From Candidatus Saccharimonadales bacterium (GTDB taxonomy: Bacteria; Patescibacteriota; Saccharimonadia; Saccharimonadales; EFPC-124), in the NCBI GenBank assembly GCA_035710125.1, contig DASTDY010000070.1, positions 4,198-28,197 of the forward strand: DNA of 24,000 nucleotides, written 5' to 3'. Positions 4,852-23,763 of the stretch are shown here, piece by piece. Under the pieces are notes generated by a model. It was not told where the DNA came from. It made no database searches and saw nothing but the letters and a program-made list of their open reading frames with translations. A program made the position numbers and the translations under genes. Each line of letters opens with the position of its first letter. Within the stretch, counting starts at the first letter, position 1.

Positions 4852-5356
4852 ATGCACTCGAGGATACGGAGGACGCTGCTAGCTGCAGCGTTGGTGATAT
4901 TCATCTCCGCAAGTCTGGCAGCAACTCCCGCTCAGGCAGCAGATGGCTGTTATGGCGACTACTGTTCCGGACGCGATCCGTCAAACTACCGGTGTAGGCA
5001 ATGTCCCATGTGCTAACGACGCCAAGTCCGTGATGCACGCAGATTTGGAGGTATATCGACCCGACTACCCGGGCGCCGTCACCGGCTCCTGGGTGAAGGT
5101 CGGCGACCTTGACCTGCGATGGTCGCCTCGGTGTCAAACCAACTGGGCCAGGGCAAGCATGTTTGCAGACACCACAATGATCGCGGCGAGCGTCACCCAA
5201 AGCACTGGCTACACGATGCGCCGTCAGACCAATGGCTGGTGGGGCGGTTCATCATCAGGTGTCTACTGGACGAACATGATTTACTCGCCAGTGGCCGCCT
5301 GCAGGGCCTGGGTTGAGGGTGGCTCGTTCCGCACAAGTTCGACCGGCTGGAGATAG
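4852..5356 (+). pseudogene. frameshifted gene for a secreted DUF2690-like protein (high-GC island C)
   Basis: ATG at 4852 with AAAGGAAG upstream encodes a signal peptide (MHSRIRRTLLAAALVIFISASLAATPAQA) followed by DGCYGDYCSGRDPSNYRC, then stops at 5014. The rest (CANDAKSV...LDLRWSPRCQTNWAR...) continues in the +1 frame (ORF 4943..5356). The two Cys codons that fit the same motif position (4993 and 5009) are 16 nt apart. Confidence 0.6.
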
Positions 5357-12112: not shown

Positions 12113-12354
12113 GGCTAAGGATCGTAACGCGCCACGACTGGTGGGACGATACCTTTTAAGAACCAGTCTTTGCGTTTGGCTCACCCACCGGTTTTGATTC
12201 GGGCGATCCCCGTTACGATCGACAGTGAATTTTCTTTAATACGCTTCCACACATAAATATGATACCAAACTAAATTAACAGTTGTTGGCATGCATGCAGC
12301 ATTTTGGGCAAGATGGCCACATATAATGCCAGAAGTGACGTTCTTTAGAAACAC

Positions 12355-12383
12355 TTGACTTCTTATACGAAATATTATATGAT
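12355..12383 (+). promoter_or_regulatory. sigma70-like promoter of cassette D
   Basis: TTGACT (12355-12360), 17-nt spacer ending AAATATTA, TATGAT (12378-12383). The -35 and the spacer 3' half are identical to the cassette E promoter. Confidence 0.55.
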
Positions 12384-12415
12384 TTAATTTAGTCTGCAAG
12401 GTAAAAACCAGCAAG

Positions 12416-12430
12416 ACAAGCACCCTGCGT
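12416..12430 (+). promoter_or_regulatory. 5'-leader box of cassette D (ACAAGCACCCTGC shared with E)
   Basis: GCACCCTGCGT (12420-12430) is the exact reverse complement of ACGCAGGGTGC (12921-12931), which lies just 5' of hammerhead 1. The 13-nt ACAAGCACCCTGC recurs at 13098-13110. Confidence 0.6.
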
Positions 12431-12460
12431 TACTACCGCCTAGGAAAAGGACTTTCCGAG

Positions 12461-12883
12461 ATGAACTTCTTCGCCAAGATCGCCCAGCGTTTCACCAGCA
12501 AGAAGACCGCGGCCACCGTGTTGCACATCTTCTGCACGATCCGTTCGATGCAGACGAAGGTTGGCGGCATGCTGCACTACGCGCTGGAGAGCACCACCCC
12601 CGCCTTGTTCTGGCCGACCAGCCACACCAACCCCGCAATGGGGTTCACGGTGTGGTCCACGCCGGACCTGCACGGGTTCACCATGGACGTCGCCATCTCT
12701 TGCCCCAACCGATTGGTGCGCGCCGCGACGGAGAGAGTCCTTCGGCAGAGCCCCTACCTGGCTCCTGGCTCGCTGCAGAGCAACGGCACCACCATCTGGT
12801 GCACGTTCTCCAGCGGCTACGCCGAGCTGGCGGATCGCTACTACACCGTGCGATCCAACATGCTGGCGTACCGCCCCTCCTAG
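12461..12883 (+). CDS. hypothetical protein, high-GC cassette D (140 aa)
   Basis: ATG at 12461 with AAAGGA upstream. This is the only frame with a natural composition; the overlapping and antisense ORFs are Arg/Pro/Gly-rich. No family recognised. Confidence 0.65.
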   Translation: MNFFAKIAQRFTSKKTAATVLHIFCTIRSMQTKVGGMLHYALESTTPALFWPTSHTNPAMGFTVWSTPDLHGFTMDVAISCPNRLVRAATERVLRQSPYLAPGSLQSNGTTIWCTFSSGYAELADRYYTVRSNMLAYRPS

Positions 12884-12920
12884 TCGATTCTTGGCTTCCG
12901 CACTGCGCGGAGCCGGCGGG

Positions 12921-12933
12921 ACGCAGGGTGCGT
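12921..12933 (+). promoter_or_regulatory. GGG-loop hairpin occluding the hammerhead 1 stem III strand
   Basis: ACGCA-GGG-TGCGT. Its 3' arm overlaps the stem III 5' strand (12930-12937). The 14-nt ACGCAGGGTGCGTT is conserved in cassette E. Confidence 0.5.
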
Positions 12934-12988
12934 TTCGTCTATATCTTATAGATATACTGATGAGCTCTGATAGAGCGAAACGAAACGC
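12930..12988 (+). ncRNA. type III hammerhead ribozyme 1 (GUC cleavage after C12939)
   Basis: Stem III: GCGTTTCG (12930-12937) with CGAAACGC (12981-12988), plus A15.1:U16.1. GTC triplet at 12937-12939. Stem I: TATATCT (12940-12946), loop TAT, AGATATA (12950-12956). Core CTGATGA (12957-12963). Stem II: GCTCT, loop GAT, AGAGC (12964-12976) with the G10.1:C11.1 pair. GAAA (12977-12980). Confidence 0.85.
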
Positions 12989-13040
12989 CAACCAACACTA
13001 CATACCTTATAAGTCCAGCCATTTTTGGTTTAATTTACCA

Positions 13041-13069
13041 TTGACTTTTTTATATAAATATTATACAAT
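13041..13069 (+). promoter_or_regulatory. sigma70-like promoter of cassette E
   Basis: TTGACT (13041-13046), 17-nt spacer ending AAATATTA, TACAAT (13064-13069). Confidence 0.55.
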
Positions 13070-13097
13070 AGTACGGCATAGGAAATCCTTCCAAAGC

Positions 13098-13110
13098 ACA
13101 AGCACCCTGC
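13098..13110 (+). promoter_or_regulatory. 5'-leader box of cassette E (ACAAGCACCCTGC)
   Basis: GCACCCTGC (13102-13110) is the reverse complement of GCAGGGTGC (13644-13652) in front of hammerhead 2. Confidence 0.6.
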
Positions 13111-13129
13111 ACGAACTTGAGAGGTCTAA

Positions 13130-13600
13130 ATGGGATTCATCAGCAACTTCCGCGAGTGGCTCATCACCGACCACTTCCGCAAGGAGTTGGGCGTGGTAGG
13201 TATGGCTCTGGCGGCCATTCGCGGCCAGCAGCTGCGCTACCAGATGCGCTACGAGCTTGCGATTGCCAGCAACAAACCCGTTTACGAACCCAACGGCCCG
13301 AACTTCACCAGCACCGTCGACGTCGTCACGCCCCTGGGCACAGTCAACCTGACCGCGAACGCCGTCGGCAACGACCTGTCCAAGCTCTACCTGAGCGTGG
13401 GCTGCGGCAAGCGCCTGGCTGTGGAGCTGATCGAGGCAGCGCTCGCGGCGTCGGGCGAGGAGTTCACCCCCTTCGGAGTGGACGCGTTGGAGTTCCAGCG
13501 GGCCGAGGACTACAACGACCTCCTCTACCTGTTCACCTGCGAGATCAGCGGTGTCCCCGCACACCTGGAGGAGAGCTACCACAAGGCCTTCCCAGGCTGA
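13130..13600 (+). CDS. hypothetical protein, high-GC cassette E (156 aa)
   Basis: ATG at 13130 with GAGAGG (13119-13124) 5 nt upstream. Natural composition. No family recognised. Confidence 0.65.
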   Translation: MGFISNFREWLITDHFRKELGVVGMALAAIRGQQLRYQMRYELAIASNKPVYEPNGPNFTSTVDVVTPLGTVNLTANAVGNDLSKLYLSVGCGKRLAVELIEAALAASGEEFTPFGVDALEFQRAEDYNDLLYLFTCEISGVPAHLEESYHKAFPG

Positions 13601-13638
13601 CCTCCAACACATTCGACAGTGTCTTCGGGCACAGTCGG

Positions 13639-13657
13639 GCGAACGCAGGGTGCGTTC
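13639..13657 (+). promoter_or_regulatory. GGG-loop hairpin occluding the hammerhead 2 stem III strand
   Basis: Perfect 8-bp stem, CGAACGCA (13639-13646), loop GGG, TGCGTTCG (13650-13657). It sequesters all of GTTCG (13653-13657), which the ribozyme stem III needs. Confidence 0.55.
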
Positions 13658-13706
13658 GTCTATATCTATTAAGGTATACTGATGAGCCCTGTTAGGGCGA
13701 AACGAA
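13653..13706 (+). ncRNA. type III hammerhead ribozyme 2 (GUC cleavage after C13659)
   Basis: Stem III: GTTCG (13653-13657) with CGAAC (13702-13706), plus A:U. GTC triplet at 13657-13659. Stem I: TATATC, loop TATTAA, GGTATA (13660-13677). CTGATGA (13678-13684). Stem II: GCCCT, loop GTT, AGGGC (13685-13697). GAAA (13698-13701). Stem II carries a compensatory T:A to C:G change relative to ribozyme 1. Confidence 0.8.
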
Positions 13707-13720
13707 CAAACGAAACATCT

Positions 13721-13778
13721 AAATAGGGTGGTTGTCTTTTTTTCGACTGTCTTAGAAGAAAAAAGACACCACCCTATT
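13721..13778 (+). repeat. conserved-apex long hairpin, copy 1
   Basis: AATAG (13721-13725) pairs with CTATT (13774-13778). The middle stem GGTGGTTGTC pairs with GACACCACC (one bulged T). The apex TTTTTCGACTGTCTTAGAAGAAAAA is identical to copy 2. A possible outer extension is CATCTA (13715-13720) with TAGATG (13784-13789). Confidence 0.65.
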
Positions 13779-13808
13779 TTGCTTAGATGTTTACTCAAAT
13801 AATCCTTA

Positions 13809-13836
13809 TTGACTTTCACTCACGATAGTATAATAT
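13809..13836 (+). promoter_or_regulatory. sigma70-like promoter of cassette F
   Basis: TTGACT (13809-13814). The -10 is ambiguous within TAGTATAATATATAAT (for example TAATAT at 13831-13836 with a 16-nt spacer). Confidence 0.4.
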
Positions 13837-13909
13837 ATAATAACCCCTTAGCGATCATTTCCGCTCTGGGCTTTACGTATCCCCGTTTCTGAATCAGGAG
13901 GCACTGCGA

Positions 13910-14326
13910 ATGATCGCAGCTTGCAGAACACAGATCACGGCCCTCGGCGAGAAAGTTTTGGCCTTCATCGGCGCGCCCGACTGCACCACCAACGACACCG
14001 CGTGGTTCGGCACCTTCGGCGTCGAGCTCGGGCTGCTGCCCGAAGCCAAAGACGACAGCGTGCGCATCACCTGCGCGGTGACGTTCGCGGAGGCCGACGA
14101 CGACCTCATGGACGCCGTCACGACCTCGCTGCACGACCTCGGCATGGTCAAGACCGACGAGGACCTCGCGGCGCGGCACCTCAAGTTCGAGATGCCGACC
14201 GAGATCTGGCGCAAGTACGCGGCCGACTGCGGTCAGATCGACCTGACCTCGCCGGCTACGATCACCCCGATCGGCGCGCCCACGACGTCGCACGGCCTCG
14301 ACCTGGCCCTCGCGACCACGGCCTGA
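13910..14326 (+). CDS. hypothetical acidic protein, high-GC cassette F (138 aa)
   Basis: ATG at 13910 with AGGAGG 8 nt upstream. Natural composition, unlike the overlapping Arg-rich frame 13921..14424. Confidence 0.65.
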   Translation: MIAACRTQITALGEKVLAFIGAPDCTTNDTAWFGTFGVELGLLPEAKDDSVRITCAVTFAEADDDLMDAVTTSLHDLGMVKTDEDLAARHLKFEMPTEIWRKYAADCGQIDLTSPATITPIGAPTTSHGLDLALATTA

Positions 14327-14344
14327 CCTGCTTCACCCGCCGGC

Positions 14345-14386
14345 GGCCCCACGCCCTGTCAACTCCTCCCGCGAGGGCGTGCGGCC
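14345..14386 (+). terminator. GC-rich hairpin after cassette F (no U-tract)
   Basis: CACGCCCT (14350-14357) pairs with AGGGCGTG (14374-14381), extended by GGCC with GGCC. A second small hairpin, GGGGG-TACG-CCCCC, lies at 14405-14418. Confidence 0.45.
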
Positions 14387-14446
14387 GCCACCCATGCAAG
14401 AAACGGGGGTACGCCCCCACCTAGACTTATATGCTATATTATTTAT

Positions 14447-14722
14447 ATGGATAGCGCTTCACACAAAACATCACCAGTCGTTGTATATAGCAGCCCCACC
14501 TGTGGTTTTTGCCACATGGCTATGGATTACCTTTCTGAAAAGGGCGTAGATTTTATAGAAAAAGACATCAGCACCGACCAAGAAGCCTTACGCTATGTAC
14601 TAGAGAAGGTCGGCCAGGCAGTCACTCCAATTATCACTATTGGCGACCAAAATATTGTTGGCTTTGACCGTGCAAAAATAGACGAAGCATTAAAACAGCT
14701 CAACCCACACGCGGCCGCCTAA
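14447..14722 (+). CDS. glutaredoxin-like thioredoxin-fold protein
   Basis: 91 aa. VVVYSSPTCGFCHMAMDYL (a CxxC active site after beta1), with TPIITIGDQNIVGFD typical of the Grx/NrdH fold. Confidence 0.85.
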   Translation: MDSASHKTSPVVVYSSPTCGFCHMAMDYLSEKGVDFIEKDISTDQEALRYVLEKVGQAVTPIITIGDQNIVGFDRAKIDEALKQLNPHAAA

Positions 14723-15729: not shown

Positions 15730-15784
15730 ATACATCTACCCTGTGTAGGTAGTTTGTTGTCCGTTGTTTTGGAGAGGAACGCAA

Positions 15785-16213
15785 ATGTGTGAAGCGCGGC
15801 GCATCATGGTCACGCCCACCGGCATCGTGCAGGACACGCCCGCACCCCAACCGCAAGCGCAGGGGACGGACGCGCATCCGCCTACCGACCAGCAGGTGTT
15901 GCTGGCCGCCGACAAGCTGGCCGGCATCGAGCTGCTGGTGTCCAACTGCGTGGGCGGCGTCGATTCGACCACTGGAGCCAAGGTGTTACAACCGCTCGAG
16001 GGTGCCGACATCGGCCTGACCGTGCTGGTGGCAGCGAACGCCGAGGCGCCCGACGGCATCGACGTGGAGTTCTTCCGCATCGAGCCGTTGGCAGCCGACC
16101 CCCGCCTGCAGTACTTGGCGTACGACCCGTACGACGAGGTGTGGTTCTTGACCTGCGGCGGCTCGCTGTGCACCAGCACGTCCGAGAGCGAGCTGGTGGG
16201 CGCACCCGCTTAA
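15785..16213 (+). CDS. hypothetical protein, high-GC island H (142 aa)
   Basis: ATG at 15785 with GGAGAGG (15771-15777). A Pro/Gln-rich N-terminal segment precedes a structured-looking C-terminal part. Confidence 0.65.
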   Translation: MCEARRIMVTPTGIVQDTPAPQPQAQGTDAHPPTDQQVLLAADKLAGIELLVSNCVGGVDSTTGAKVLQPLEGADIGLTVLVAANAEAPDGIDVEFFRIEPLAADPRLQYLAYDPYDEVWFLTCGGSLCTSTSESELVGAPA

Positions 16214-16290: not shown

Positions 16291-16406
16291 TTTTTAAAAC
16301 TCTTGCTATAATTTTGGTGGGGAGTGAGTGCTTTTTTAGTGCTCCTCTCCACCAGCTGCTTTTAGAGCAGTTTTTATTTTTGTTCACCTTAGCTAAAAGA
16401 CCACGT

Positions 16407-16473
16407 AATAGCGGCAGGTATGTTCCATTTTTCGACTGTCTTAGAAGAAAAATGGAACATACCTGCCGCTATT
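16407..16473 (+). repeat. conserved-apex long hairpin, copy 2
   Basis: Perfect 26-bp stem (16407-16432 with 16448-16473) and a 15-nt loop, CGACTGTCTTAGAAG. The base AATAG/CTATT and the apex TTTTT-loop-AAAAA are identical to copy 1; the middle 16 bp are unrelated but fully complementary. Confidence 0.7.
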
Positions 16474-18465: not shown

Positions 18466-18512
18466 TTGCAAAGTCGTAAGAAGAACCCACACAATCTGCG
18501 CAAGGAGAAACC

Positions 18513-19232
18513 GTGGACACCGAGCAATTGCTGATTGATGTCCGCAACACCGTGCTGGCGCAGCTCAGGCCTCTGAGCGCATTCGGCGTGTACGCCATCG
18601 GCTTCAACCCGAGCCGCGTGCAGGACCGTGAAAGCGGAAACGGGAAGTTCGGCATGAACTTCGTAATCTACGCCGGATCGGAGCTGTACACCCACCTGAA
18701 CAAGCGCGGCAACCACTGCGTGTACCCCGAACGCCTGCTGTTGATCTACCGCACATTGGCGGAGGTGCTCAAGCCCTTCACCGACAGCGGCCGACTGCAC
18801 TTCATGGCGAACGAGGCCATGCTGATGGCAACTCTCCCCGAGTTCATGTGGGAGTCGGCCGGCGTAGTACTGGACGACGACCTGGTTCGGGTGCCCCAGA
18901 GCAACATCTGGGACATCTGGGACCGCGCGCTGGCCGAAGGCTGGCTGGCGGACCGCACCAACTCAGAGCTCGACCCCTGGGGCCGCGTGCTCAACAACGC
19001 ACCCCTGTTCACCGCCGAGAACCCTGACCACAACGCGTGGGCAAGCTTCTCGGTCCTGCCCTACGACTCGAAAGAGCCGCGGACAGAAGAGGCGATGGGC
19101 ATGGCTGCTCTGACCCACATCGGTTGGAACTTCCTCGGAGAGACCGAACCTCACGAGCTCCAAGAGATCGCCGAGAAGCTGCTCAGCGACTCGGTGTTCC
19201 TCAGGCAGCACAACTGCTGGGTCTTTCTCTGA
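18513..19232 (+). CDS. hypothetical protein, high-GC island I (239 aa)
   Basis: GTG at 18513 with AAGGAG (18502-18507) 5 nt upstream. Trp/Asp-rich with a natural composition. No family recognised. Confidence 0.7.
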   Translation: MDTEQLLIDVRNTVLAQLRPLSAFGVYAIGFNPSRVQDRESGNGKFGMNFVIYAGSELYTHLNKRGNHCVYPERLLLIYRTLAEVLKPFTDSGRLHFMANEAMLMATLPEFMWESAGVVLDDDLVRVPQSNIWDIWDRALAEGWLADRTNSELDPWGRVLNNAPLFTAENPDHNAWASFSVLPYDSKEPRTEEAMGMAALTHIGWNFLGETEPHELQEIAEKLLSDSVFLRQHNCWVFL

Positions 19233-19310: not shown

Positions 19311-19336
19311 CACGCAACGATGCGTGGGTTTTTTAT
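19311..19336 (+). terminator. intrinsic terminator 2 after island I
   Basis: CACGCA-ACGA-TGCGTG (19311-19326) followed by GGTTTTTTATTTT. Confidence 0.7.
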
Positions 19337-21580: not shown

Positions 21581-22297
21581 CTAGCCACGTGGCAGGCAAC
21601 CTGCAGCTCCTTGCCACCACTCGCTGAGCGGTCGCTGGAGCAGGGGCCAGCCATTGCTGATATGCACGCAAATCGTGTCTGGACGGGGCATCGTGTTGTC
21701 GAGCACCACGCACACCACCCAACCCACAATGCCGCCGAGCGCCACCAGACGCATCACCATATGCCAGGCTCGCCACGGGGCTTCAACCAAGGCAGGCAAC
21801 ACCAGGGCGAACAGCGCGTAGCCGTACGTAGGCAGGATCAGCGTGTGATACACCTTGGTGGGGCTAAAAAACGCCCCCCAGGTCATGATGTTCGACTGTC
21901 CCTGCATTGAGTAGGTGACAATGGCCTCAGGGATTGTCAGGCCCAACAGGCACGCCACACCAAAGCCGACTGCCAACCAACGGAACCAGCGACGCTGATA
22001 CCACTGGTTCTCGCCGTGGAGCTCTTTGGCCAGCATGCTGGCCGCAAACCAGGTGAATCCCAAAAGCAGATCACCAGGCAAGAGTCCCAGGTACTGTTGG
22101 CTCAGGTTGACCGATCGACCCTCGACAAGCAACGCCAGAGCCAACAGGCCAACCGGAGTCGCCAACCAACCTATGTAGGGCTGGATTTTCGAGGAGTCAA
22201 AGGTCCAACGCAAGCCAGGGACAATCCGCAGTTGAATCCTCGGAAAGTCAAAAGCCCAACGAAGGCCAGGGACAATCCGCAGCTGCTGCGCCAACAT
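21581..22297 (-). CDS. polytopic membrane protein, high-GC island J (238 aa), paralog of K
   Basis: ATG at 22297 with AAGAGG upstream. It aligns with K across the E(N/G)R..S.QY.GL..GD, WYQ..W...GxGVA and SPT..(V/Y)HT blocks. The N-terminus carries a 17-aa tandem duplication. Confidence 0.65.
   Translation of the reverse strand: MLAQQLRIVPGLRWAFDFPRIQLRIVPGLRWTFDSSKIQPYIGWLATPVGLLALALLVEGRSVNLSQQYLGLLPGDLLLGFTWFAASMLAKELHGENQWYQRRWFRWLAVGFGVACLLGLTIPEAIVTYSMQGQSNIMTWGAFFSPTKVYHTLILPTYGYALFALVLPALVEAPWRAWHMVMRLVALGGIVGWVVCVVLDNTMPRPDTICVHISNGWPLLQRPLSEWWQGAAGCLPRG
22196..22282 (-). repeat. 51-bp tandem repeat (about 1.7 copies) inside the 5' end of J
   Basis: GTCAAAGGTCCAACGCAAGCCAGGGACAATCCGCAG (22196-22231) and GTCAAAAGCCCAACGAAGGCCAGGGACAATCCGCAG (22247-22282). 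The 51-nt period encodes LRIVPGLRW(A/T)FD..(R/K)IQ twice. Confidence 0.8.
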
Positions 22298-22353
22298 CTG
22301 GCACCTCTTTCGGATCGAACGAACACTTCTTCCGTAACGGAATAGCAAAAAAG

Positions 22354-22442: not shown

Positions 22443-23708
22443 TTACTTCTTGACCCAGGGCGGGTCAACCCAGCCAGCCGGCTTGGAGTTCTCGTTGCCC
22501 TGGGTGGGCGCCGAGGTCTCCTCGCCGGTCATCCACGGCGGCAGCGGCAGGCTCGACTGCGGCTGCACGATGTGAGGCTGGGTGCCGGTGTCGACCGGCT
22601 GCCTGTCGGCGATCCACGGGGGGACAGCCAACGGGCGGTTCTGCGGTGCGACGGACGGCTGGTCGGGTCCACGCCCGAAAGTCGGACGCTGGACGCCGCC
22701 ATCGAACGGAAGCGGTTTCACGAGCACCTCGCCGTCCTGCTGACGGACACGCACGACCTGAGTCGCATCGGAGTCGCGCTTGCTGTCGTCCACCACGCAC
22801 TCCGGCTTGGCTTTCACGAACGTCTGCTTCTTCGGCACCCAACGGGCGTGGCTGAAGCTGTTGTAGTACTTGTACCACTTCCAGACGAACAGCTTGTCAC
22901 GCTTGCCCGCAACCAGCAGACCCAGGAACACCTGAAGCTTGGGGAGCCACCCGTTGTAGGGGTGTACCAGGCTCAGGTCGACCTTGCGGCCACCGTTGCC
23001 TGCCTTGTAGTCCTTGCGTTCCTTGTTGTCCTTGATCACGGAGTTGACGAACCAGACGAACAGGCCGACTGCCATGACGCAGATCAGCTGAGCCGCCAGC
23101 ACCTTCTTGCCGACGCTGTAGTCGCCCAGAATGCCGTGCGTCAGTTCCACCGTCGTTGCCGACACGATGACCACCGTGAGGTAGGTCACCAGGAGGATCA
23201 GTGCGGTGTGCACCAGCGAGGTAGGGCTGAGCTGCTGACCGATGGTGTAGACACCCTCGTCGTTCAGCGACTTCCGCTTGGCCCACCTCATGGTGTGGTT
23301 CTTCGGACGACCCCACGCCCACGTGCGGGCCAGGGTGAAGAAGATCTCCGTTCCCTTGAGCAGCAACATCAACGCGACGCCGAGGCCCCAGCCGATGTTG
23401 TGCAGCCACGCCTCCTGGTACCACATGCCAGTTGTGTCCGGCAGGAGGATGAGGGTGGCGATGGTTCCCGCGGTGAGGGCGATGCCCACGCCGATGTCAC
23501 CGTACTTCAGTCCCTTGTACTGCGCGCTGTAGGGGATCCAGCGGTTCTCCAGGAGGAGTCCCGTGGTCCACATGAGCACGAAGGTGTAGATGAAGCCGGC
23601 GAACAGGGTGGTGAACGGCGTTGTCCACGTTGGCCAGATCTCGTAGAAGAATCTCGCCCACGGGTACAGGTTCAGCTTGTCGGGAAACGACGTGACGTCG
23701 ATGTTCAT
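22443..23708 (-). CDS. polytopic membrane protein with Pro-rich C-terminal tail, high-GC island K (421 aa)
   Basis: ATG at 23708 (MNIDVTSFPDK) with GAGAGG upstream. About 6 hydrophobic spans. The C-terminal ~130 aa are Pro/Gln-rich, with three PPW motifs (VPPWIAD, LPPWMTG, DPPWVKK). Confidence 0.65.
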   Translation of the reverse strand: MNIDVTSFPDKLNLYPWARFFYEIWPTWTTPFTTLFAGFIYTFVLMWTTGLLLENRWIPYSAQYKGLKYGDIGVGIALTAGTIATLILLPDTTGMWYQEAWLHNIGWGLGVALMLLLKGTEIFFTLARTWAWGRPKNHTMRWAKRKSLNDEGVYTIGQQLSPTSLVHTALILLVTYLTVVIVSATTVELTHGILGDYSVGKKVLAAQLICVMAVGLFVWFVNSVIKDNKERKDYKAGNGGRKVDLSLVHPYNGWLPKLQVFLGLLVAGKRDKLFVWKWYKYYNSFSHARWVPKKQTFVKAKPECVVDDSKRDSDATQVVRVRQQDGEVLVKPLPFDGGVQRPTFGRGPDQPSVAPQNRPLAVPPWIADRQPVDTGTQPHIVQPQSSLPLPPWMTGEETSAPTQGNENSKPAGWVDPPWVKK

Positions 23709-23763
23709 GTGCACCTCTCGGGAAAAATGGTCGGATGGTGCGCCAGGCGGCGACACCAACATT

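Follow-up and report, generated by a model that had tools for sequence, protein, structure and literature searches.

Leader-to-tail complementarity in hammerhead-bearing, high-GC gene cassettes of a Candidatus Saccharimonadales bacterium and its possible role at the mRNA 3' end

The 24,000-nucleotide (nt) stretch of DNA analysed here, referred to below as the window, comes from Candidatus Saccharimonadales bacterium (GenBank assembly GCA_035710125.1, contig DASTDY010000070.1, positions 4,198 to 28,197 of the forward strand). Its host sequence of about 50% GC is broken up by about 10 islands of about 65% GC each. In the cassettes examined (A, B and D to H), every island held one small open reading frame (ORF) with its own promoter of the TTGACA/TATAAT (sigma-70) type. 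GC content at third codon positions (GC3) was 0.83 to 0.92 in the cassette ORFs measured (247-714, 846-1232, 12461-12883, 13130-13600, 13910-14326 and 18513-19232), as against 0.55 to 0.59 in host genes, and none of these six ORFs had a family match. This study is concerned with cassettes D and E, which follow one another on the forward strand, and with the complementarity between their 5' leaders and the 3' ends at which a hammerhead ribozyme begins. ORF D (12461-12883, VFO38_05770) encodes a fast-evolving orphan protein of 140 amino acids (aa) with a GC3 of 0.91, and ORF E (13130-13600, VFO38_05775) an orphan of 156 aa with a GC3 of 0.89. A promoter scan placed a promoter-like site upstream of each: TTGACT, 17 nt and TATGAT at 12355-12383 for D (10 of 12 matches), with a putative transcription start near 12391, and TTGACT, 17 nt and TACAAT at 13041-13069 for E, with a putative start near 13076.

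Type III hammerhead ribozymes were located on the forward strand at 12932-12986 in cassette D (Rfam RF00008, 42.2 bits, E=2.8e-7; custom model R1, 76.8 bits) and at 13653-13708 in cassette E (38.0 bits, E=4.4e-6; R1, 66.5 bits). Both RF00008 scores were under the gathering threshold of 48.5 bits, so that there was no gathering-level match, but both sequences spanned all 54 model positions with an intact core, as did 10 related copies. The architecture consists of the core CUGANGA ... GAAA, a GUC triplet, an open stem III and closed stems I and II. In the 12-sequence alignment A5, the hammerhead helices covaried: 12 of the 20 pairs had changed on both sides, a number reached by none of 500 shuffles, and 89% of the alignment cells were paired compared with 26 to 40% in slid controls. 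Hammerheads are expected to cleave themselves after C17, and by sequence the cut would fall after C12939 in D and C13660 in E. The promoter of E lies directly 3' of the D ribozyme with no terminator between them. Full-window Rfam scans and model R1 revealed no further ribozyme in the window, including the region downstream of cassette F.

The leaders of D and E share a 13-nt box, ACAAGCACCCTGC, at 12416-12428 and 13098-13110, as the earlier note on this sequence had reported, and these are the sole exact copies in the window. At the other end of each cassette lies a shared 14-nt box, ACGCAGGGTGCGTT, at 12921-12934 in D and 13643-13656 in E; the earlier note had placed the E copy one base too low. 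This 3' box was said to fold on itself, and the hairpin is longer than was claimed. In D, 12915-12925 pairs with 12929-12939 (11 base pairs [bp] including three G.U, loop GGG), and in E, 13638-13647 pairs with 13651-13660 (10 bp); both hairpins have a predicted energy of -13.9 kcal/mol. The 5' strand of stem III (12932-12938 in D, 13654-13659 in E) is buried by this hairpin, hereafter the mask, in its entirety and together with the C of the cleavage site in both cassettes. The tail box, that is, the part of the hairpin complementary to the leader, is located immediately upstream of this strand, at 12920-12931 within the D tail element (12915-12939) and at 13645-13653 within the E tail element (13638-13660). 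Each tail element is preceded by another hairpin in the untranslated 3' region (3'UTR). In D it is GC-rich (12893-12914), and a related strain has a hairpin at the same place despite many base changes; in E it carries a cUUCGg tetraloop (13614-13637), and the related strain has an equivalent UUCG-loop hairpin whose stem sequence is largely different.

The core of the leader box, GCACCCUGC, is the complement of the mask's 5' arm plus loop, and the resulting helix abuts stem III. In D, where the leader element extends from 12416 to 12440, the core at 12420-12431 pairs with 12920-12931 by 11 Watson-Crick pairs and one G.U, and a second leader segment, 12436-12440, pairs with 12915-12919. In E, the core at 13102-13110 pairs with 13645-13653 by 9 bp. 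The match lengths of 11 and 9 nt given in the earlier note were thus correct, but the tail partner in E is 13645-13653 and not 13644-13652. The main leader boxes are located 18 to 30 nt 5' of the start codon and outside the Shine-Dalgarno region.

A separate complementarity was seen only in cassette E. The Shine-Dalgarno region at 13116-13126 (UUGAGAGGUC) is complementary to 13599-13607 (GACCUCCAA) just past the stop codon, and the same complement is kept in the copy of E in the related strain (1129-1139 with 1600-1612 of L002). It may add translational control to the closed form of the mRNA.

Nearest-neighbour folding was used to compare full-length RNAs, beginning at the putative transcription starts, with 3'-only RNAs running from the stop codon to the ribozyme end. 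In the 3'-only RNAs the masked fold was predicted to be better than the active fold by 4.7 kcal/mol (D) and 5.9 kcal/mol (E). In the full-length RNAs, the leader:tail helix together with the active hammerhead was favoured over the mask by 11.8 (D) and 4.1 (E) kcal/mol, with a mean pair probability of the helix of 0.95 and 0.78, respectively. When the leader was held unpaired, the mask returned and buried U16.1 and C17. The leader:tail helix survived when the ORF was held single-stranded and was already present in the predicted folds of nascent transcripts. Three alternative pairings, with the leader opening the hairpin and freeing stem III, had been proposed before, and the comparison of full-length with 3'-only RNA that had been suggested as a check gave predicted folds that behave in this way. 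The leader:tail helix and stem III could stack, because the tail box and the stem III strand are immediate neighbours.

Neither ORF D nor ORF E matched any entry in Pfam, PHROGs or PADLOC, and searches for exact copies of D, E and the adjacent ATP synthase subunit gave no match. Among 5.8 billion proteins searched, one homologue was found for each, both in the related strain (D' on L001, E' on L002), with amino acid identities of 74% for D and 84% for E. For E, an exhaustive search of 1.84 billion representatives gave no homologue beyond the related-strain copy, and tblastn with E as the query gave no phage match. The two proteins are predicted to be alpha/beta proteins and not membrane peptides; the AlphaFold models had modest confidence (predicted local distance difference test scores of 72 for D and 59 for E), and no fold match to the D model was found in PDB. 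The ORFs of the two cassettes had been described as unrelated. BLASTP indeed showed no similarity between D and E, but the claim is made doubtful by the models, which share one order of elements, from a long helix at the N terminus through three strands, a second helix and one or two further strands to a helix at the C terminus, and by a weak profile alignment (E=0.07) that matches two cysteine motifs (ISCPNRL/SVGCGKRL and WCTFSSG/FTCEISG). D and E are probably very diverged tandem duplicates, and the simplest history is that the whole unit was duplicated in tandem and that the ORFs then diverged fast.

The ratio of nonsynonymous to synonymous substitution rates (dN/dS) between the strains was 0.57 for D and 0.58 for E, compared with 0.01 to 0.02 for ATP synthase genes, and dS was similar. 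Since dS of D and E resembles that of host genes, the high GC3 persists through vertical descent. Against this divergence, the tail box and stem III strand were 100% identical between strains (19/19 and 18/18; 12921-12939 in D), and the rest of the ribozyme was 98% identical. Identity was 66 to 79% in the adjacent 3'UTR, 82 to 90% in the ORFs and 75 to 82% in the leaders, in which AGCACCCTGC was invariant. The boxes and the ribozyme stayed fixed while the ORFs of D and E diverged, which argues for constraint on both.

Pattern scans of genome and metagenome collections, together with look-ups of MMPL-transporter homologues, yielded at least the following further cassettes in other Saccharibacteria. 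They have a common build, with a promoter, a small high-GC ORF and a type III hammerhead directly upstream of an MMPL gene. L003/L006 (L003 6420-6840) and L029/L030 (L029 2060-2500) encode a peptide of 45 to 46 aa, L016 (990-1690) and L024/L025 (L024 1800-2500) a protein of 143 to 146 aa, and L027/L028 (L027 1990-2500) a protein of 87 aa. At the same site elsewhere, L026 (1-465) has a cassette with a terminator and no ribozyme, and L031 to L033 (near 2400-2500) are empty. The site upstream of the MMPL gene is a hot spot in Saccharibacteria, with at least four different cassettes, of which three end in a hammerhead and one in a terminator. L015 was set aside, as a long high-GC operon lies upstream and the leader is off the contig.

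All nine cassette copies analysed had the leader:tail helix in the minimum-energy fold of the full-length RNA, and in each of them the tail box ended 4 to 6 nt before the G of GUC and so abutted stem III. Pair probabilities were 0.75 to 0.98 for D, E, D', E', L003, L029 and L027, 0.65 for L024 and 0.26 for L016. The sequences that pair are different from family to family. In L003, leader GCAUCGGACA pairs with tail UGUCCGAUGC, plus 3 bp (probability 0.75); in L029, GCGUCGGAUA with UAUCCGGCGC (0.98); and in L027, whose box abuts the Shine-Dalgarno sequence, CAACGAGACAAGACA with UGUCUUGUCCGUUG (0.96), a separate solution of 14 bp. In L016 the leader segments GAAAACC and CCCUCU pair with GGUUUUC and AGAGGG, and in L024 the fold pairs CACCCUCUCUCC with GGAUCAGAGGGU, while ACGAAAAUC:GGUUUUCGU was recognised by inspection. 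The second leader segment of L016 and L024, CCCUCU, pairs with the 5' strand of the mask (GGCUAGAGGG), in keeping with the arrangement in D and E. The masking partner in the MMPL-site cassettes is a different segment of the 3'UTR from that in D and E. Masks are strong in D, E, L029, L027 and L016 and weak in L003 and L024.

Compensatory changes were looked for in the one pair of alignable homologues, L003 and L029, which can be aligned across promoter, leader, tail and ribozyme. In their helix an A-U pair corresponds to G-C, a C-G to U-A and a U-A to U.G, and 10 of 10 pairs are kept (P=0.0026 in a simulation that placed the same five substitutions at random). Wherever a pair is imperfect it is G.U on the sense strand, and the helices are weaker in antisense, which argues for a structure at the RNA level and not for a DNA-level repeat. 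According to the earlier note, homologous cassettes lacking complementarity between the boxes would have spoken against the proposed switch; what we found was complementarity kept with different sequences and with compensatory changes. Hammerheads from phage and other settings that share this stem I (L007 to L014, L017 to L023, L034 and L035) had no leader-type complementarity above controls; leader pairing is therefore no general property of the subtype.

Watson-Crick runs of at least 9, 10 and 11 bp occurred between random pieces of 70 and 75 nt from these loci with P=0.014, 0.003 and 0.001, respectively. The longest runs between cognate leaders and 3'UTRs were 9 to 11 in D and E, 10 in L003 and 9 in L027, and those between non-cognate partners were mostly 5 to 7. 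A directed test compared the score of the 14 nt beside stem III against the leader with their scores against background windows; P was 0.002 for D, 0.009 for E and below 0.001 for L003, and L016 was not significant. The families L003/L029 and L027 support the helix statistically, and L016/L024 are not significant. RNAduplex with whole leaders against whole 3'UTRs was also tried and was uninformative, as long internal loops inflated every score. D and E, being paralogous copies, count as one evolutionary observation. We consider that the long-range helix is very probably real because of its island-like conservation, its fixed position by stem III, the independent sequence solutions and the compensatory changes.

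We propose the following mechanism. The roughly 25 nt before the cut site would be a three-way conformational element. Its last 7 to 9 nt could pair with the 3' strand of the ribozyme to form stem III and an active ribozyme, or the same nucleotides could pair back on an upstream segment of the 3'UTR, which would give a masked ribozyme before the cut and a blunt 3'-terminal stem after it. The tail box, which directly precedes the stem III strand, would pair with the mRNA's own leader at a distance of 18 to 30 nt upstream of the start codon. The leader of D and E would compete for the 5' arm and loop of the mask, so that a free leader would open the mask, the helix would stack on stem III and the ribozyme would cut, while the hairpin would stay closed when the leader is occupied or absent. 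Initiating ribosomes could occupy the leader, because the box is within or near reach of the 30S footprint. The cut would separate the mRNA from downstream RNA (the following cassette or a terminator here, and the MMPL gene at the other locus), and the cleaved mRNA would stay closed either by a 5'-3' panhandle or by a blunt 3' hairpin bearing a 2',3'-cyclic phosphate. A blunt hairpin is expected in D and E because the 3' arm of the mask ends exactly at the cut.

That hammerheads make the 3' ends of D and E, with a free leader opening the mask before the cut, is a reading of these models that we adopt tentatively, giving it close to an even chance. It fits the predicted energetics of D and E and the arrangement in L016 and L024. 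The broader proposition, that a natural hammerhead is gated by the distant 5' leader of its own mRNA, that cleavage, downstream release and end closure report a ribosome-free leader, and that this recurs in Saccharibacteria cassettes, is rather unlikely.

Several observations weigh against leader-controlled cleavage. The fold evidence consists of nearest-neighbour predictions for RNAs of 370 to 650 nt whose transcription starts were guessed, and the thermodynamic preference may not decide the outcome, because a helix across about 500 nt should be slower to form than a local hairpin. For D and E there are two strains only, and the boxes are invariant between them. A whole-3'UTR complementarity score of the Smith-Waterman type, much noisier than the directed test, was significant only for D, F and L027 and marginal for E, L003, L029 and H; L016 and L024 were not significant, nor were A, B and G. 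The masks of L003 and L024 are weak, and in L029 the masking partner is elsewhere in the 3'UTR and has no nucleotides in common with the leader helix. A terminator scan flagged the mask hairpins of D and E as terminator-like. Leader-tail pairing in this genome is also not bound to hammerheads, because cassette F has the helix and no ribozyme. In F (ORF 13910-14326), the leader box at 13876-13890 (CGUAUCCCCGUUUCU) forms a 15-bp helix with the tail box at 14399-14413 in the minimum-energy fold (P about 0.003), and the tail element (14399-14419) includes a local hairpin, GGGGGUACGCCCCC, at 14406-14419, whose 5' arm and loop are overlapped by the leader helix in the geometry of D and E. Rfam scans and model R1 detected no ribozyme in cassette F. 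This contest between leader and hairpin fits a general role in closing the mRNA or protecting its end at least as well.

Such a role leads to the foremost alternative, namely that the helix protects the mRNA end and does not control the ribozyme. Cleavage would then be constitutive and cotranscriptional, and the new 3' end would be hidden from nucleases by turns, in a panhandle when the leader is free, with the leader hidden too, and in the blunt hairpin when ribosomes are on the leader. The overlap with stem III would have no other cause than that the 3' end in need of protection is necessarily the stem III strand. Consistent with this, the terminal helix of the cleaved product ended at the cut or one base past it in nine of nine cassettes and in none at +2 or more, and the processed products kept the leader:tail helix in their minimum-energy folds. 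The 15-bp helix of F against a local hairpin, where there is no ribozyme, agrees with it as well, and a marginal helix was found in H. There is also a precedent in the hbs mRNA of Bacillus subtilis, in which a 14-bp interaction of the 5'UTR with the 3'UTR modulates leader cleavage by RNase Y (PMC5737220). However, fast constitutive cleavage would need help, because the mask beats the active fold by the 4.7 to 5.9 kcal/mol given above, and the strand masking stem III is itself what the leader pairs with in D, E, L016 and L024, an arrangement that seems purposeful. End protection without ribozyme control is quite possible, if on balance doubtful, and the two readings are compatible.

The terminator-like appearance of the mask permits another explanation, in which the hairpin of the 3' box followed by UAUAUCUUAU would be a weak terminator that stops some transcripts, leader pairing would act as a long-range antiterminator, and the hammerhead would trim read-through transcripts to the same hairpin 3' end and free the downstream message. 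The scan did flag 12915-12939 and 13637-13661, D has no other terminator before the E promoter, and the local hairpin of F likewise stands last in its 3'UTR, with a host gene directly after it. But the scan found three sites where shuffled sequences gave a mean of 2.1, and the U tract is poor (five U in eight, interrupted). The U-rich tails, UAUAUCUUAU or AUAUCUAUUA, are simply stem I of the ribozyme, and the masking helix at the MMPL site encloses other hairpins and is not terminator-shaped. We regard this explanation as improbable.

It is also conceivable that the boxes are inverted repeats of DNA, scars of recombination or insertion left when high-GC ORFs were swapped into a promoter-ribozyme chassis, with no function in RNA. 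The boxes do lie at the boundary between AT-rich flank and GC-rich insert, D and E share flanks around ORFs whose similarity is undetectable by BLASTP, and the MMPL site carries different cassettes in different genomes or none. Nevertheless, L003 and L029 can be aligned in both ORF and flanks, and their compensatory changes point to selection for pairing. The sense-strand G.U pairs and the tail box-stem III distance, fixed in every family, do likewise speak against scars; moreover, D and E may be diverged duplicates and not swapped ORFs. An origin at the DNA level would be compatible with a function at the RNA level, and as an explanation that excludes such a function it is very unlikely. A reading of the repeats as integron attC-like sites was also considered and was dropped, since the boxes do not appear to resemble attC core sites and the evidence points to pairing at the RNA level. 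That chance complementarity was carried along without function by the tandem duplication is hardly credible, for although D and E are paralogous, so that their shared boxes are one event, and GC-rich UTRs yield many random helices, the boxes are perfectly conserved islands in diverged leaders and 3'UTRs whether paralogs or strains are compared, the geometry recurs in independent cassettes with other sequences and with covariation, and the directed tests gave P of 0.002 to 0.009.

As a bolder step beyond the proposition of a leader-gated hammerhead, the cassettes, with their high-GC3 orphan ORFs and strong promoters in an epibiont of 50% GC, might be unusually stable closed-loop mRNAs that serve a special purpose, for example for proteins aimed at high-GC host bacteria.

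Some other features of the window were noted. Just 3' of the E hammerhead, on the forward strand, there is a long hairpin at 13713-13792, presumably a terminator, with the conserved centre TTTTTCGACTGTCTTAGAAGAAAAA; the miRNA-like Rfam matches at this position are spurious and reflect the long stem. Long hairpins at 16400-16470 and at 1730-1794 of L002 differ from it in their stems and have the central TTTTTCGACTGTCTTAGAAGAAAAA in common, and these hairpins may be copies of one terminator-like repeat whose loop is conserved. Only about 27 nt past the hairpin of cassette F, at 14447, a glutaredoxin-like host gene begins. In cassette H, the A-rich leader at 18484-18496 (AAGAAGAACCCAC) shows marginally significant complementarity (P 0.03 to 0.08) to the cassette's own terminator, namely to its 3' arm and U tract at 19320-19335. 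Further high-GC islands are located near 4943-5356, 15764-16213, 21581-22348 and 22443-23762. By manual reading, the island at 4853-5356 has a signal-peptide-like start at 4853 in a frame that stops near 5017 and differs from that of ORF 4943-5356, which has a weak DUF2690 match (E=0.004); the island is perhaps a cassette for a secreted protein that has undergone a frameshift. In the related strain, a gene for a DUF6766 protein of 232 aa is located between the ATP synthase operon and cassette D (L001 5080-5778). The window keeps only both ends of this gene, at 12181-12260, and a deletion beside the cassette array seems to have occurred.

Type III hammerheads of bacteria and phages lie between genes in polycistronic transcripts, and mRNA processing has been suggested as their role (Perreault et al. 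2011, PMC3088659; PMC6765202). The ribozymes of D and E resemble them in the catalytic core, the three stems and the intergenic position, with D followed by E and the other cassettes by the MMPL gene. They differ from them in the leader pairing, in the masking helix at the cut, in the Saccharimonadales host and in the association with high-GC3 orphan ORFs. In the literature we found no description of long-range leader pairing or of a conserved cut-site mask for bacterial hammerheads, and none linking hammerheads with Saccharibacteria or Patescibacteria.

Among known systems, what comes nearest to a 5'-3' helix linked with processing of the 3' end is the tac/fbi fold-back of hok mRNA, in which cellular nucleases remove the 3' partner and so activate translation (PMC9841398). 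In both systems a long-distance helix between UTRs closes a short mRNA, and mutually exclusive structures are tied to 3' processing; here, in contrast, self-cleavage would do the processing and the tail box stays on the mRNA. The peptides of about 46 aa of L003 and L029 look, when read from sequence, like a single membrane-spanning segment. No toxin homology was found, nor any minus-strand promoter-like site in 12250-14500, as would mark a type I toxin-antitoxin system of the hok/Sok kind. Helices of about 10 to 14 bp between leader and 3'UTR of the same mRNA are known from B. subtilis hbs (PMC5737220) and Staphylococcus aureus icaR (PMC3868564). The hbs helix is tied to initiating ribosomes and nuclease access (PMC5737220), and in icaR the 3'UTR pairs with the Shine-Dalgarno region (PMC3868564). 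Neither mRNA has a ribozyme, which is present here, and the main box in the cassettes lies upstream of the Shine-Dalgarno sequence.

In hammerheads of viroids and satellite RNAs and in engineered allosteric ones, a competing helix sequesters a stem strand and the fold sets the activity. Bridges have been engineered into hammerheads (PMC12747935). Those RNAs are circular replicons or synthetic; here the effector would be the distant 5' leader of the same mRNA, in a chromosomal bacterial gene.

The role of most genomic hammerheads, especially bacterial ones, is still undefined (PMC6765202). The cassettes offer a defined context, with a ribozyme at the 3' end of a single-gene mRNA, a covarying partner in the leader and a competing helix at the cut, in which the purpose becomes testable. 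If cleavage does depend on licensing by the leader, the cassettes would provide the first case of a natural hammerhead under the control of mRNA architecture or translation status, and a part for synthetic biology. If the helix only protects the end, a closed-loop mRNA made by a ribozyme would join the few known bacterial interactions between 5' and 3' UTRs. The finding also draws attention to fast-evolving orphan cassettes in Saccharibacteria hot spots beside host genes. Cassettes D and E thus combine two known kinds of RNA element, the type III hammerhead and the mRNA closed by pairing of its 5' and 3' UTRs.

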